A stretch of 57,113 nucleotides of DNA from Candidatus Woesearchaeota archaeon (GTDB lineage: Archaea; Nanobdellota; Nanobdellia; Woesearchaeales; CAXGTL01): NCBI GenBank assembly GCA_964012725.1, contig CAXGTL010000001.1, forward strand, positions 1 through 57,113, in the 5' to 3' direction. How positions within the stretch are numbered: position 1 is the stretch's first letter; the number at the start of each line of letters is the position of its first letter. Under the pieces are notes generated by a model, which was not told where the DNA came from, did no database searches, and saw only the letters and a list, made by a program, of their open reading frames with translations. The position numbers and the translations under genes were made by a program. This document shows, piece after piece, positions 2,772 to 44,456 of the stretch.

Positions 2772-3275
2772 TTAAACACTCTTCTGTTTACCAAACATGC
2801 CTTTATACTTAGCTTGACCTTCAGTTCTAGAAAAAATAATCTGACAAACCTTAACACCAGCATAAAGTTTAATCGGCATTTCAGACAAATTCTTTATCTC
2901 AAGTACTTGAACATTGTTAATATTCGGCTGAACAAAGTTAGCAGTTACATGCACAGCTAACCCAAGCCTAGCAAACCTACTTCTGCCTGACAAAAACCCA
3001 CATATATCTTTAGGCAGTTTAATTTTTTCTTTTGTTACACCTAATATAAACTCTCCTGGGTTTAGAACTAAACTTTTTTCAGTTATAAGTTTAGTATGTT
3101 TCTTATAATTAGTTCTTTCTTTAATATCAATGATTTTCTCGCACTTAAACTCTCTAAACTTATTATCTAATGTTAAATCATATGATGCTCCGGTAAGATT
3201 TTTCTTAGAAAAAGGTGTGATTTTAATTCTACCTAACTTAATTTCTTTTAATACCTCTTTTTTTGTTAGTATCAT
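2772..3275 (-). CDS. dcd: dCTP deaminase (dUTPase-fold)
   Basis: 167 aa. Blocks GASYDLTL, GFLSGRSRFARLGL and VCQIIF are typical of Dcd. Confidence 0.8.
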   Translation of the reverse strand: MILTKKEVLKEIKLGRIKITPFSKKNLTGASYDLTLDNKFREFKCEKIIDIKERTNYKKHTKLITEKSLVLNPGEFILGVTKEKIKLPKDICGFLSGRSRFARLGLAVHVTANFVQPNINNVQVLEIKNLSEMPIKLYAGVKVCQIIFSRTEGQAKYKGMFGKQKSV

Positions 3276-3290
3276 TAACTTTTCACCAAA

Positions 3291-3911
3291 TTACTTCAAA
3301 ACTTTACCAGTCTCGATATACCACAAATACAAATCTAATTTAGATTGCGTAGTATTTAATTGTTTCGCTAGTTTACCTAACAAAGCTTCAATTTCTATAT
3401 ATTTATTCTTTGTCAATGTCTTTGGTCTATCAACAACCTTATTATCAACCAACAAATCAATAATATGAAAATCAAGTATTGCTAAGTTATCATAACCTAT
3501 GTTTCTTAAGAAATGCGAAGATTCTTTATAACCTAAACCTTTTATACTTTTGACTATGTATTCCCTTAAAACAAATTCATCTTTAACATTTTTAAGCTTT
3601 TTTTTTAATTGTTGAAATGTTTTTCTAGCTTCAATAATATACTTTGCTCTTATATTAGGAAATCTATGACCTAATTCTTTAAGTTTTCGTGCTAATTGTT
3701 TTTCTGTAAGTGTCAAAAAACCACTACCAATTGCATTCTGTATCATGATCCCTCGTTCAGCATTAAAATTAGCAGTAAGAATGCAAAAACAAAGTTCAGA
3801 AAAGACTTTATTATTACTTTTGACTTGTTTAAACTCTTTAATTCTATTGTTTACTATCTTATTGATTGATAATTTTCTTAATTTATTGATTTTGTTTACT
3901 AAACTTCTCAT
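3291..3911 (-). CDS. ogg: 8-oxoguanine DNA glycosylase/AP lyase, archaeal Ogg2 type
   Basis: 206 aa. ELCFCILTANFNAE block and HhH-GPD region IKGLGYKESSHFLRNIGYDNLAILDFHI, collinear with the Methanocaldococcus-type Ogg as I remember it. Confidence 0.85.
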   Translation of the reverse strand: MRSLVNKINKLRKLSINKIVNNRIKEFKQVKSNNKVFSELCFCILTANFNAERGIMIQNAIGSGFLTLTEKQLARKLKELGHRFPNIRAKYIIEARKTFQQLKKKLKNVKDEFVLREYIVKSIKGLGYKESSHFLRNIGYDNLAILDFHIIDLLVDNKVVDRPKTLTKNKYIEIEALLGKLAKQLNTTQSKLDLYLWYIETGKVLK

Positions 3912-3912
3912 T

Positions 3913-4635
3913 CTACTTTGCCATTGCTTTCTTCTTCAATCCCTTAGGCATCTTCTCAATTGCATAACGCAGAGCAGTCCTTGGCATTGTTTTCTTATTC
4001 TTCATAACATAATCAAACACTTGCTTTTGATAATGATTACTTGCAACTTTCAGCATCCAACCATAACCCTTTTGTACAAGATCATCAGAATCCATTAAAA
4101 GAATGTCTGCAATCTCAAATATATGTTTTAAATTCTTTGAAGAATAAAATTGTTTCTCAGTAGAAATATGTATAACAGCTGCAGCTCTACGCATCCACCT
4201 ATTCTTTGACTTTGTCCATTTCTTAACATTAGAATAAAACTCAGGATATTTCAACAACAACCTATTGAAAGCATGTGTACAAAAGTCATCACACTTTGCC
4301 CAATTGTTAACATACTTCTTTACCCAAGATTCAAAAACAAAGAAATGTTTTTTCTCAAACCTGGGCCTACAATTCATTGCCCAAGAAAACGCAATTGTTG
4401 ATTCTTCATTATAATCTGATTTAAGCAATTGTTCACACAATGTAAATATCTCTTCCACAAACTTATCTTTAACATCTTTCCAATACTTTTTACCAATCTT
4501 TCTAACAATTCCAGACCTCACTCCATGTACTTTAATCTTTTCCTTAAAAAAATTAATAGAACCTTTTCTATATTTAAAATCAACATGTTGTTTAAGTTCT
4601 TTTCTTATCTTATTTAACACAGTTTGATTATTCAT
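3913..4635 (-). CDS. DNA alkylation repair protein (AlkD-like HEAT-repeat family)
   Basis: 240 aa, all-helical. Blocks WAKCDDFC, NRWMRRAAAV and DDLVQKGYGWMLK. Confidence 0.65.
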   Translation of the reverse strand: MNNQTVLNKIRKELKQHVDFKYRKGSINFFKEKIKVHGVRSGIVRKIGKKYWKDVKDKFVEEIFTLCEQLLKSDYNEESTIAFSWAMNCRPRFEKKHFFVFESWVKKYVNNWAKCDDFCTHAFNRLLLKYPEFYSNVKKWTKSKNRWMRRAAAVIHISTEKQFYSSKNLKHIFEIADILLMDSDDLVQKGYGWMLKVASNHYQKQVFDYVMKNKKTMPRTALRYAIEKMPKGLKKKAMAK

Positions 4636-5018
4636 TTACTTGACCATAATCCATGGATATTACAGTATGCTCTTATATAATAATTATCAGTGCCTGAATA
4701 AGAAATTACTTCAGGGGTTTGTCCTGGTTTTAGAGGATGTCTTTTAGCTACTTCATCACTAACCACTTCAATCCACTCAATGAAATGGTTTTTTTCCATA
4801 GGGTGTGGAGTACTTCCTACTGTTATCTTGAATTTATTATTGTCTAACTCCTCAACAACAGGAACATGCTTTTCTTTACCTTCTTCTTTACTTTTCTCAA
4901 CTTGTAATTCCATTGGCACACCACAACAAACTAATTCACCAGCACCAGAATGTACTAATTCAACAATATTACCACACATTTCACATTTCCAAACTTGATT
5001 TAATTTAGTCATATTCAA
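4632..5018 (-). CDS. dfx: desulfoferrodoxin (2Fe superoxide reductase)
   Basis: 128 aa. N-terminal desulforedoxin cysteines CEMCGN...VCCG. SOR centre residues EKHVPV, HPM and CNIHG. Overlaps the neighbouring genes by 4 nt, an operon arrangement. Confidence 0.85.
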
Positions 5019-5584: not shown

Positions 5585-5599
5585 TTTGTATACCTCCTT

Positions 5600-6022
5600 T
5601 TAACACAATCCAGGATATAGTGCTTTTACCCTTTCTATTATTTGTTCTTTTTGTTCATCAGATAAAACTTCATCTAATTTAGGATATAAAGTTTGATCTT
5701 CAAAGTTTTTATGTTTTGTATGAAATTCTTTTAGTTTAGAAAGATCAATATCTTCTTTTTTCAACAGCTTTGCCTCAATCTCCTTAAGCATATCCAATAT
5801 CTGTATATGTTCTTCCATAACATCTGCTAACATTGCAGAGGTTTCTTGTTCCTTTATATCAAATGAGAAAATTGCTTTTTCTTCCATAAAAAAATGCTTC
5901 TCAAGCTCCCACTTAAAGTGATTAAAAGTCTTTATATTCACATCTTGTTCTAGTTCTTTAAGAAATTTACCCAATAAACAATGATTTCTAAACATTAAGT
6001 CATGTATTGTAACATTTGCCAT
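5600..6022 (-). CDS. hemerythrin-like (HHE cation-binding) domain protein
   Basis: 140 aa, helical, with spaced His/Glu residues (HFFMEE, MEEHIQIL, FHTKHKNFED). First gene of the minus-strand operon; GGGGGAT lies upstream of the ATG. Confidence 0.5.
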   Translation of the reverse strand: MANVTIHDLMFRNHCLLGKFLKELEQDVNIKTFNHFKWELEKHFFMEEKAIFSFDIKEQETSAMLADVMEEHIQILDMLKEIEAKLLKKEDIDLSKLKEFHTKHKNFEDQTLYPKLDEVLSDEQKEQIIERVKALYPGLC

Positions 6023-6098
6023 TTATATCATCCCCCATTATACTATATCAACTAATTACTAATATATATATGTTTTGTTGAAACAAGGTTTTTGAGTT

Positions 6099-6211
6099 AC
6101 CCAAAATATCCGTCTGTGCCGTTATTGACATTTTTAACGAAGTTAATAATGGCATGGCCAGATGAAGTTTCATCGAACAAAGTGAGATGAAATGTAATAG
6201 GATTTTTGGGT
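6099..6211 (+). ncRNA. candidate structured RNA, family A, copy 2
   Basis: ACCCAAAAUAUCCGUCUGUGCC-[GUUAUUGAC..GUUAAUAAU]-GGCAUGGCCAGAUGAAG-[UUUCAUC GAACAAAGUGA GAUGAAA]-UGUAAUAGGAUUUUUGGGU. Two G-U pairs in P2 exist only on this strand. TATATATA box ends about 23 nt before 6094. Confidence 0.6.
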
Positions 6212-6323
6212 GGACCAAAATAGAAAGATTTATATATAACCTTTACTTCTTTTAAGAAATATTAAAAGTTATGAAAGTATTAAATATACTAAAAGGTAAA
6301 CAAATATACTAAAACTACATAAA

Positions 6324-7546: not shown

Positions 7547-8833
7547 ATGAAAACAAATAAAATAAAAATAAAAAACCTATTATTAATAACAATATTTATG
7601 TTAAGCATATTAACTGCAATTAGTTTAAGCAGTGCAGCTATATACAACCAAGAACATGTTGTGGTTACACTTGTCAATCAACAACCAGATCCTGTTAAAC
7701 CAGGAGGAACTGTAGATGTAAGGATTAAAATTGAGAATCAAGGTCAAAATGCAAAAGACTTTGAATTTGAGTTTGTACCTAAATATCCTTTTTCCTTGTA
7801 TGATGAAGAAGATACAACAAAATATATTGGTATTTTGGGTGCAGGTGATGATTATGCTGTATATTACAAATATAAAGTTCGTATTGATGAAAATGCAGTT
7901 GAAGGAATAAATGAAATAGAATTTAAATATAAACATTCAAATGTTGATTCGGTAACTAAAAAATTTGATATTAATATTCAAACAGAAGATGCAATTGTTT
8001 TAATAAAAGAAGTAAAAACAGAACCAGAAACTATATCACAAGGACAAGAAGCAAAAATTAATTTTAAATTGGAAAACATTGCAGATTCATTAATAAGAGA
8101 TATTAGTATAAATTTGGATTTAAGTTCTTCAGACATGCCAATATCTCCATTATCAACAGGAAGTGAGAAAAAAATTAAGACAATAAAGCCTGGCGAAGAA
8201 GCAGAAATGAGTTTTGATATTATTACACTTGCTACAGCAGAATCACAAATACACAAACTACCTTTAACATTAACATACTCTGATGAAATTGGAAAAAATT
8301 ATAGTAAAACAGATATTGTTAGTATTATAATTTCATCTCACCCAGACTTAACTTATAATGTTGATAGTACAGATATATTATTTGCAGGACAACCTGGTAC
8401 AGCAACATTAAAAATAGTTAATAAAGGAACAGAAGATATTAAATTTTTAAATATAATGTTAAAAGATAGTGATGACTTTGTAAAATTATCCAATGATGAT
8501 ATTTATGTTGGAAATATAGATTCTGATGACTATGAAACAGCAGATTTTGATTTATACATAGAAAAAAAAGTAAAGAACCTAGAATTACCATTAACAGTTG
8601 AGTATAGAGACTCTATCAATCGTGAATATAAAGAAGAAATTAAAGTTCCAATTACATTGTATAAAGCAGGTGATGCTAAGAAATACAATTTAATAAGTGG
8701 GAATGGTACTGCTGGTTGGATTGTAATGATACTTATTGTTGGTGTTGGTTTTTATTTTTACAGAAGGTATAAAAAAAGAAAAAAGAATAAAAACCACAAA
8801 CATCATCAAAAAAGTGAAAAAAAAGAAAAGTGA
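7547..8833 (+). CDS. secreted/anchored CARDB- or S-layer-like repeat protein (COG1361-type)
   Basis: 428 aa. N-terminal hydrophobic signal, repeated beta-rich modules (VDVRIKIENQG, AKINFKLENIA, ATLKIVNKG), C-terminal TM helix plus K/H-rich tail. Confidence 0.6.
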   Translation: MKTNKIKIKNLLLITIFMLSILTAISLSSAAIYNQEHVVVTLVNQQPDPVKPGGTVDVRIKIENQGQNAKDFEFEFVPKYPFSLYDEEDTTKYIGILGAGDDYAVYYKYKVRIDENAVEGINEIEFKYKHSNVDSVTKKFDINIQTEDAIVLIKEVKTEPETISQGQEAKINFKLENIADSLIRDISINLDLSSSDMPISPLSTGSEKKIKTIKPGEEAEMSFDIITLATAESQIHKLPLTLTYSDEIGKNYSKTDIVSIIISSHPDLTYNVDSTDILFAGQPGTATLKIVNKGTEDIKFLNIMLKDSDDFVKLSNDDIYVGNIDSDDYETADFDLYIEKKVKNLELPLTVEYRDSINREYKEEIKVPITLYKAGDAKKYNLISGNGTAGWIVMILIVGVGFYFYRRYKKRKKNKNHKHHQKSEKKEK

Positions 8834-12024: not shown

Positions 12025-12158
12025 GTATATATTTAGTTAGTTGGCCTCAAGTTTGTTTTTGAGACCATCTTCCATCGTAAGATGTTCGAGGAACCGAAAA
12101 TATTTATTTTATTATATTACATTTTCGGTCAAGAAAACCTGGCCAACTAAATATATAC
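12025..12158 (-). ncRNA. candidate structured RNA (single copy), multi-stem with long closing helix
   Basis: GC-enriched island. GTATATATTTAG(TTAG)TTGGCC pairs with GGCCAACTAAATATATAC. Internal hairpins CATCTT/AAGATG, CCGAAAAT/ATTTTCGG and CTCAA/TTGAG. Two optional G-U pairs slightly favour the minus strand, so the strand assignment is uncertain. Confidence 0.4.
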
Positions 12159-13270: not shown

Positions 13271-13273
13271 ATA

Positions 13274-13370
13274 CGCTGATGCCCGGATTTGAACCGGGAT
13301 ATCCGTAAGGAAACGAGATGACAGGAAATATTTTCCAGTCTCGCGCAGTACCAGGTTGTGCCACATCAGC
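13274..13370 (-). tRNA. tRNA-Ser(GGA) with one intron and long variable arm
   Basis: Acceptor GCUGAUG/CAUCAGC; anticodon stem CGAGA/UCUCG with loop CUGGAAA plus a ~13-nt intron; variable arm UUUCCUUACGGAUAU; T arm CCCGG-UUCAAAU-CCGGG. Confidence 0.85.
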
Positions 13371-13385
13371 AGTGTTCATTTTTTT

Positions 13386-43972: not shown

Positions 43973-43993
43973 TTTACTTATTTCAACACTAAA

Positions 43994-44118
43994 AAAGCTT
44001 TATTCAAAATATCCGTCTGTGCCATCAATGACAGCAATAATGTAGTTATTGATGGCATGGCCAGATGTAGCTTTTGAGCGAAGCGAGAAAGCGGAATAGG
44101 ATTTTTGGATGAAGCTTT
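43994..44118 (+). ncRNA. candidate structured RNA, family A, copy 3
   Basis: AAAGCUUUAUUCAAAAUAUCCGUCUGUGCC-[AUCAAUGAC..GUUAUUGAU]-GGCAUGGCCAGAUGUAG-[GCUUU UGAGCGAAGCGAG AAAGC]-GGAAUAGGAUUUUUGGAUGAAGCUUU. The 20-bp closing helix has two U-G pairs that would be A-C mismatches on the other strand. Confidence 0.6.
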
Positions 44119-44240
44119 AAAAAACATAACATTTATAAACACAAACAACATAAAATATAATATTATATTTAACAAAAAGAGGCAGCGCAAATTATAAATT
44201 TGCTGGTCTCTTTTTCAAAGAAAAAGAGGTGAATTAAAAA

Positions 44241-44456
44241 ATGAGACATTGGCACGGAGCAATTTTATCATTGCTAATAATTGTTTTAGCATTTTTATGG
44301 GATTCTGGAGCATGGGTTAAATGGGTTATAATACTTGCAGCATTAGTATTGTTTTTAAAAGCAATGATGCACCCTATGTGTATGCCGCCACCAAAGGCAG
44401 CAGTAAAAAAAGCAAAAAGAAAACCTGCTAAGAAAAAGAAAAAAAGAAAAAGGTAA
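44241..44456 (+). CDS. small membrane protein, two TM helices plus K/R-rich tail
   Basis: 71 aa (MRHWHGAILSLLIIVLAFLWDSGAWVKWVIILAALVLFLKAMM...KKKKKRKR). GAGGTGA SD. Downstream of family A copy 3. Confidence 0.65.
   Translation: MRHWHGAILSLLIIVLAFLWDSGAWVKWVIILAALVLFLKAMMHPMCMPPPKAAVKKAKRKPAKKKKKRKR

Follow-up and report, generated by a model that had tools for sequence, protein, structure and literature searches.

The DNA analysed here, which we refer to as the window, is a stretch of 57,113 nt from a Candidatus Woesearchaeota archaeon (contig CAXGTL010000001.1), and it carries three copies of a small intergenic element: copy A at 2139–2269 on the minus strand (106.8 bits), copy B, our reference copy, at 6096–6214 on the plus strand (118.8 bits), and copy C at 43996–44116 on the plus strand (AGCTTTATTC...GGATGAAGCT; 125 bits), a density of about one per 20 kb. 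The three GC-enriched islands of 113–125 nt that a preliminary description had reported are present at the positions and on the strands it gave, with a GC content of 36–41% compared with 29% for the window and 16–27% for the flanking intergenic DNA. The three blocks it described as near-identical (19, 21 and 16 nt) align as it had proposed, and the window contains exactly three instances of the core sequence CCGTCTGTGCC. The arms between these blocks are unrelated from copy to copy but self-complementary, and all of the P1, P2 and P3 arms quoted in that description were found in the sequence and do pair. On the designated strand each copy folds into a closing helix and two hairpins, with energies of −39.5, −51.1 and −52.1 kcal/mol (z = −6.2 to −7.8) which were equalled by none of the shuffled sequences (0/200), and the opposite strand of each copy folds 11–18 kcal/mol less well. 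Copy A has a further 6 nt (AAGGTC) at its 5′ end beyond the inverted repeat.

The anatomy of the element is best followed in copy B, where all features lie on the plus strand. The P1 arms are found at 6099–6111 (5′ strand) and 6200–6211 (3′ strand), with weaker pairing further out, and they enclose an invariant 5′ core, GU-CUG-U-GCC (6112–6120; invariant in 31–32 of the 32 copies aligned below), a variable distal P2 hairpin (6121–6155), an invariant 3′ core, GGC-CAG-AU-GAA (6156–6166), the P3 hairpin (6167–6193), and the remaining 3′ core, GUA-AU-A, which runs into the P1 3′ strand GGAUUUUUGGGU (6194–6211). G6112 and U6113 are unpaired junction bases and U6117 is bulged, while the CUG and GCC of the 5′ core pair with GGC-CAG (6156–6161), so that P2 is closed by CUG(U)GCC/GGCCAG; this is the sole register possible in the clade represented by L028 and L036 (L numbers denote loci and contigs from our searches). 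Column pairing statistics led us to correct the junction. The AU at 6162–6163 pairs with the AU at 6197–6198, and the GAA at 6164–6166 lies opposite the GUA at 6194–6196 in a GNA/GNA loop. Across the family, the Y of CAGRYG pairs with the R of ARUAGG (alignment columns 152–221: U-A in 20 copies, C-G in 12, none unpaired), with both versions found inside a single genome, and the adjoining columns 151–222 hold A-U in 29 copies and G-U in three. P3 is therefore longer by a symmetric internal GNA/GNA loop and two Watson–Crick pairs, and the revised junction reads P1-GU-P2(CUG.GCC/GGC.CAG)-P3(RY/RU)-A-P1. The pairs of P3 itself are 100% paired with double changes in 7/7 of them, and its tip forms a tandem G.A/A.G motif (C-GA-AC-AAA-GU-GA-G, 6174–6186), of which the GA...GA is also present in the AT-rich clade. 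In total the core is about 50 nt long and asymmetric, with 5′ and 3′ blocks unrelated to one another, and it is nearly invariant across genomes of 26–46% GC.

The family extends well beyond the window. A metagenome scan with the core pattern found 13 loci, all 13 of them true homologs, on contigs of 26–31% GC mostly from Tara Oceans, and a looser pattern, searched in a single genome for each species, matched 24 loci, 13 of which, from six archaeal MAGs, contained 16 true copies. A covariance model built from 15 sequences recovered additional, more diverged copies within the same metagenome loci. One of the carrier MAGs is labelled Nanoarchaeota, one simply 'archaeon', and four are TPA bins labelled Methanosarcinales, and homologs of two window proteins bear the names Woesearchaeota or Nanoarchaeota, which, together with a tRNA gene with an intron in the window, places the host among the DPANN archaea. 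The element is 110–175 nt long across the family and has no coding capacity, as only spurious short ORFs overlap it (a spurious antisense ORF used as a protein query gave three matches only). Copies can be numerous, with three in the 57-kb window, five in 85 kb of the MAG JBDRQT01 and three in 3 kb of the Tara contig L017.

The preliminary description had proposed a covariance model of the family, and the 32 copies that we aligned with such a model covary strongly. In the 32-copy alignment 95.9–97.1% of the cells form standard pairs, compared with approximately 75% for column shuffles and 33–48% for slid partners, and changes on both sides are seen in 21 to 28 pairs (the higher figure is for a 40-pair alignment), which bears out the claim of fully compensated helices. 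The same is true of the claim that G-U pairs fix the strand. There are 120 G-U/U-G cells vs 14 A-C/C-A cells overall (22 vs 5 in P1 and 10 vs 0 in P3), an excess which, like the poorer folding of the opposite strand noted above, indicates that the folded form is a single-stranded molecule of that one strand. The P1 inverted repeat covaries without keeping any single sequence, even in this genome (ACCC.., AATTCAACC.. and AGCTTTATTC..), and its terminal bases are fairly conserved within clades (GGCNYTGTCC... and AGCTTCATTC...).

We note several structural variants. The three members on L017 lie at 2773–2892, 3775–3931 and about 5590–5790, and the third is degenerate with only the 3′ core kept. 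In the L017b variant and in L038b (L038, 659–832) the distal P2 has been swapped for two extra hairpins to give a four-way arrangement, and P2 is therefore an expandable region. The P2 of L006 (11409–11471) is nearly identical to that of L014 (7406–7545), and their P1 sequences are entirely different (TACTTCATACAAAATATCC vs GGCTCTGTCCGGAATATAC); modules seem to have been exchanged between subfamilies.

The assertion that the core matches no known RNA family also held when the window was searched against Rfam, as only tRNA was found at gathering thresholds. Below threshold, the best Rfam 15 model for the reference copy was GA-cis (RF02987) at 21.5 bits, compared with its gathering cutoff of 34.7, and seven loci with diverged copies gave no match at E ≤ 1. 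GA-cis resembles the element in having a hairpin tip with tandem G.A pairs of the CGA..GA type, but many of the aligned pairs are non-canonical, the architecture is different, and the diverged copies do not match it. The signatures of 5S rRNA, C/D, H/ACA and hammerhead RNAs are absent both by inspection and by Rfam. One might nonetheless expect a repetitive element with a small self-cleaving ribozyme that excises it from host transcripts, in the manner of hammerhead retrozymes, to look much like this: multi-copy and mobile, in variable genetic contexts, with a three-way junction, invariant unpaired junction bases and a GUC triplet at the P1/P2 junction. Retrozymes and SINE-like ribozyme repeats are likewise repetitive and mobile, and they too have a conserved core and a three-way junction. 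The element differs from them in lacking catalytic core sequences, as the hammerhead CUGANGA/GAAA is missing and CAGAUGA or CAGAUGG is found instead, and none of the Rfam ribozyme models gives a match, whether to the reference copy at E = 10 or to the seven loci at E = 1. The copies are also intergenic and would have little need of excision from mRNA, and we consider a ribozyme of this kind very unlikely.

The genes next to 17 copies that we inspected share no common theme, and include aaRS, methionine aminopeptidase (MetAP), L10e, histone, aIF2-alpha, NusG-like, glycosyltransferase, ABC exporter operon or ABC transporter, and small membrane protein genes. Three of the 17 copies face convergent genes, and none lies in a convergent spacer. 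In tandem spacers six copies have the same orientation as their neighbours and three the opposite, with divergent spacers being uninformative. Within the window all three copies lie 113–123 nt upstream of a co-oriented start codon, and for copies B and C the conserved TATA box of the downstream gene sits between the element and the gene, with the same promoter kept in relatives without the element. For copy B, this TATA box (ATTTATATATAACC) begins about 15 nt past the element and the gene is MarR-like. The TATA box of the divergent gene lies about 22–28 nt upstream of copies B and C, and these two copies are thus placed between two divergent core promoters and outside either transcription unit. 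A promoter at a fixed distance upstream of the element was sought in 31 copies, where 8-mers resembling TTTATATA showed no positional peak. Copies A and C lie upstream of genes for tiny membrane proteins (1850–2023 on the minus strand, 57 aa, and 44241–44456 on the plus strand, 71 aa, respectively). The 57-aa gene is conserved in relatives without the element, and a small gene is found there at the place of the 71-aa gene; this association is positional, not functional.

These contexts bear directly on the suggestion of a switch in the preliminary description, which we considered as a riboswitch or other cis-regulatory element in a 5′ UTR with two AUGGC registers as its alternative states. Like the purine and TPP riboswitches, the element has a closing P1, two hairpins, a conserved three-way junction and variable, compensated helices, and the distance to co-oriented start codons in the window would suit such a role. 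Unlike these riboswitches, it is mobile and has no conserved gene association, expression platform or retention at orthologous loci. The downstream genes are unrelated and in three of 17 cases convergent, a conserved TATA box intervenes between element and gene, and the promoter is unchanged in relatives that lack the element, where the orthologous MarR-like/ABC operon and small membrane protein genes have no copy upstream. The two pairings do exist, as either unit of an imperfect 9-nt tandem duplication in the P2 5′ strand of copy B, UGCCGUUAU (6117–6125) and UGACAUUUU (6126–6134), is able to pair with the 3′ strand. The unit in the P2 of the window (UGCCNNNNN twice, 6117–6134) corresponds to a perfect duplication in JBDRQT01 (GTGCCATGA twice, L025 around 2500–2530), and the duplication is absent from the L028/L036 clade and from L041, a JBDRQT01 copy in which one unit is missing (around 3215–3235). 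The ambiguity of register therefore arises from a duplication polymorphism and is not evidence of a switch. Gene context and absence at orthologous sites refute the ligand-switch reading, and we give it almost no credence. We note that the P2 duplication unit has the same length (9 nt) as the target-site duplications described below, and it could be a scar left by insertion and excision, or have arisen by slippage.

Evidence of mobility is clearest in JBDRQT01, where five copies are 87–99% identical over exactly 143–146 nt with unrelated flanks, and 9-bp direct repeats abut the last P1 base pair (TAACATCCT, AGTAGGATA, CAATCTTCA, TACACAATT and TATGGTGCA/TATGATGCA). A blind scan of the flanks of 31 copies found direct repeats of at least 8/9 in 13 of them, nine being perfect (9/9), against 2.2% in mismatched-flank controls. 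These repeats directly adjoin the outer helix, the similarity between copies ends at the P1 ends, and the P1 arms, counted from the junction, have a nearly constant length of 17–24 nt. P1 is thus the terminal inverted repeat of an element whose insertion duplicates a 9-bp target.

The copies in the window are lineage-specific insertions, as all three are missing from relatives whose neighbouring proteins are 72–78% identical and whose gene order is kept, and the approximately 70 kb of non-redundant syntenic DNA that we retrieved from these relatives contained no family copy. At the sites of copies A and C the duplicated target is present only once in the relatives. Copy A is flanked on the minus strand by an upstream GTTAAAACT (2270–2278) and a downstream GTTAAATTT (2130–2138), which the blind scan recorded as an 8/9 direct repeat (TTGGTTAAA/TTAGTTAAA); the relatives L054–L056 lack the element in the orthologous spacer between the 57-aa gene and a cold-shock gene, and they have GTTAAAATC once, at the place taken in the window by GTTAAAACT-element-GTTAAATTT. 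Copy C lies on the plus strand between the two halves of a low-complexity duplication with a 7/9 match, CACTAAAAA (43987–43995) and TTAAAAAAC (44117–44125), and here the relatives L178 and L179 have an uninterrupted ...CACACTAAAAACACAAGATTTATAAATG... in place of the ...CAACACTAAAAA-element-TTAAAAAACATAACATTTATAAAC of the window. Copy B is also absent from relatives and has no recognisable duplication (4/9), and alignment with these relatives fixes its insertion boundary on the right only (GGGTGG/ACCAAAA). Elsewhere in the family, a copy occupies the spacer between L10e and a pilin-like gene in L009, and the same spacer is empty in L034. The preliminary description had named flanking target-site duplications and copies scattered inside genes as marks of a MITE; the duplications were found, and no family copy was seen inside a gene. 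Insertions instead lie in the spacers between genes, often with a gene end or a divergent promoter on one side and the next TATA box on the other.

From the target-site duplications, unrelated flanks and empty orthologous sites, we conclude that the three loci are most probably copies of a MITE-like non-autonomous mobile element found in AT-rich DPANN archaea (Woesearchaeota/Nanoarchaeota) and, in a few cases, in MAGs of other archaea. With their tiny genomes, DPANN archaea are generally considered to hold few mobile elements, in contrast with the density seen in the window. The family is genuine, with a strong structure and no annotation, and its members are transposons, neither riboswitches nor resident RNA genes; the last of these readings, also implied by the preliminary description, does not survive the 9-bp duplications and the absence of copies at the orthologous sites of relatives. 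This carries a caution for annotation, as a transposon is evidently able to pass every covariation test for a structured RNA.

A related explanation is that the element is a host non-coding RNA gene family, acting in trans as an RNP component or sRNA, which was spread by duplication or transposition and then kept because it is useful. It would account for the invariant core and the compensated helices across genomes of 26–46% GC, for the similarity of the tandem G.A and GNA/GNA motifs to RNA motifs that bind proteins, and for the state of older copies, as those with decayed duplications are still intact (97.1% paired compared with 97.7% in young copies). It should be noted that the core of these older copies has changed at only 2/414 positions, a figure which is biased because the homologs were collected with core-sequence patterns and the searches required an intact core; the P1 and P3 pairing figures are free of this bias. 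Absence from all three sites and from the other fetched syntenic DNA of close relatives argues against a host family, as do the near-identical young copies in one MAG, the failure to find a promoter at a fixed distance, and the position of copies B and C between divergent core promoters and outside transcription units. We regard such a family as improbable.

As a MITE-like element, the family can be compared with the prokaryotic MITEs such as the Correia elements of Neisseria, enterobacterial ERIC, pneumococcal RUP and BOX, and archaeal IS-derived elements. These are also small, non-coding, multi-copy and intergenic, with terminal inverted repeats, target-site duplications of fixed length, presence or absence between related genomes, and transcripts able to fold into stable hairpins. 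The element differs from them in having an asymmetric core of approximately 50 nt with a three-way junction in place of a simple hairpin, covariation in every helix including the inverted repeat, a strong G-U bias to one strand, and no parent IS among the scanned ORFs. The PATEs of IS200/IS605 elements, REP sequences with their RAYT and integron attC sites are similar to the element in conserving structure over sequence and in having one active strand. However, these lack unit-spanning terminal inverted repeats and target-site duplications, both of which the element has, and identity with an IS200/IS605-type PATE or REP is ruled out on these grounds. The family is best filed as a MITE with a conserved, strand-specific three-way junction. 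A literature search for structured cores in the MITEs of DPANN or other archaea yielded nothing specific.

The asymmetric, deeply conserved and covarying core has no explanation in ordinary MITE biology, because cut-and-paste transposition of double-stranded DNA needs no P2 or P3 pairing, G-U asymmetry or compensated repeats. Nor does such biology account for the intactness of the copies with decayed duplications described above. This raises the question of why a three-way junction that is asymmetric and specific to one strand should persist in a MITE over genomes so far diverged. Such a core suggests that the element has a single-stranded form, RNA or ssDNA, which may have a role in mobility or after insertion. 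We infer that the element acts as a folded single strand, most likely an RNA produced by read-through or from nearby promoters, with an ssDNA form being less likely. RNA is favoured because the G.A-rich motifs resemble protein-binding RNA motifs, and ssDNA is kept in consideration because there is no fixed promoter and copies B and C lie outside both of the neighbouring transcription units. The junction with the GNA/GNA and tandem G.A motifs is probably a structure recognised by a protein, and it might be needed in cis for mobilisation or for keeping an insertion harmless or useful. Mobilisation itself would occur in trans, by a putative enzyme making 9-bp staggered cuts. If the fold is needed for mobility, the family would represent an undescribed single-strand transposition route, and if it acts after insertion, the transposon would be distributing a ready-made RNA module beside promoters.

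Two bolder proposals can be made from the sequences, and we hold both only tentatively. In one, DPANN archaea would have a mobility pathway that works on one strand, as RNA or ssDNA, recognises the three-way junction in cis and makes 9-bp duplications, with a unit defined by the fold, or else the element would spread a protein-binding or catalytic RNA module retained by the host, and we think it possible at best. In the other, which we consider a similarly doubtful prospect, the folded strand, as ssDNA or as RNA that is reverse-transcribed, would be the substrate of an undescribed pathway in which the three-way junction is what is recognised, the base of P1 defines the ends and a 9-bp staggered cut is made. 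We know of no description of a mobile unit defined by its fold and not by inverted repeats read by a protein. The covariation of the inverted repeats even within one genome is consistent with such a unit, as are the P1 counts of G-U over A-C, the position of the duplications right beside the last pair of a P1 of nearly constant length, and the absence of any DDE transposase seen nearby. Against this, a reverse transcriptase or HUH enzyme is equally absent from the scanned ORFs, and the terminal bases of P1 are fairly conserved in clades, as would be expected of an inverted repeat recognised by a protein. Furthermore, a duplication fixed at 9 bp is what DDE transposases typically leave, and to our knowledge the ssDNA transposons described so far, IS200/IS605 and IS91, make no duplications.

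The MITE-like reading calls for a mobilising enzyme supplied from elsewhere. Pfam searches found no transposase, integrase or reverse transcriptase among approximately 37 ORFs of the window and 10 ORFs beside young copies, and no HUH enzyme was found among them either. No half-elements flanking an ORF were found, and nhmmer searches with the 5′, middle and 3′ thirds of the element recovered only the degenerate L017 copy and a 22-nt 5′ fragment in L015, with no ORF-bearing form. This fragment (CATTTAAAATATCCGTCTGTGT, 7854–7875) is identical to the 5′ end of the element, lies 14 nt past a full copy and adjoins the 3′ end of a convergent NAC-like gene. Inverted repeats starting with GG together with a 9-bp duplication recall the IS903-group, IS1 and IS4 elements, which we take to share these features.

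We also looked for the family outside cellular genomes. Three pattern scans of viral contigs gave chance matches only, and the covariance model found no copy in the 80 loci searched with it, out of at least 120 matched, so that a viral origin was rejected; blastn against the plasmids of PLSDB gave no match. The distribution among archaea may mean that the family crosses between distant lineages or that some of the labels are wrong. The carriers in question are the Methanosarcinales-labelled TPA bins (L028, L034, L036–L038, L040 and L042). JBDRQT01, which holds the youngest copies (L022 and L025), has a GC content of 39% and encodes chemotaxis-type proteins, as judged by inspection of ORF translations, together with a GHKL ATPase and a V4R-domain protein (Pfam), and in this it is unlike typical DPANN.

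A different hairpin-bounded insert of about 130–200 nt, with arms ATGTGCATAGT...ACTATGCACAT, is present in L054 (about 4760–4990) and also in L055–L057. In L054, a relative without copy B, it sits upstream of the MarR-like promoter at the same place as copy B does in the window, which suggests that this spacer is a recurrent landing site. The window contains a second structured intergenic element of unrelated sequence at 12025–12158, with inverted-repeat arms of 17–21 nt (GTATATATTTAGTTAGTTGGCC...GGCCAACTAAATATATAC) and a multi-branch fold (−47.7 kcal/mol, z = −8.6 on the minus strand), and this may be another MITE-like family. Finally, a tRNA gene carrying an intron plus one additional insertion lies on the minus strand at 13273–13371, inside a spurious 115-aa ORF; it scores 44 bits with the Rfam tRNA model, and ARAGORN reports it as 'tRNA-???', with no anticodon assigned.
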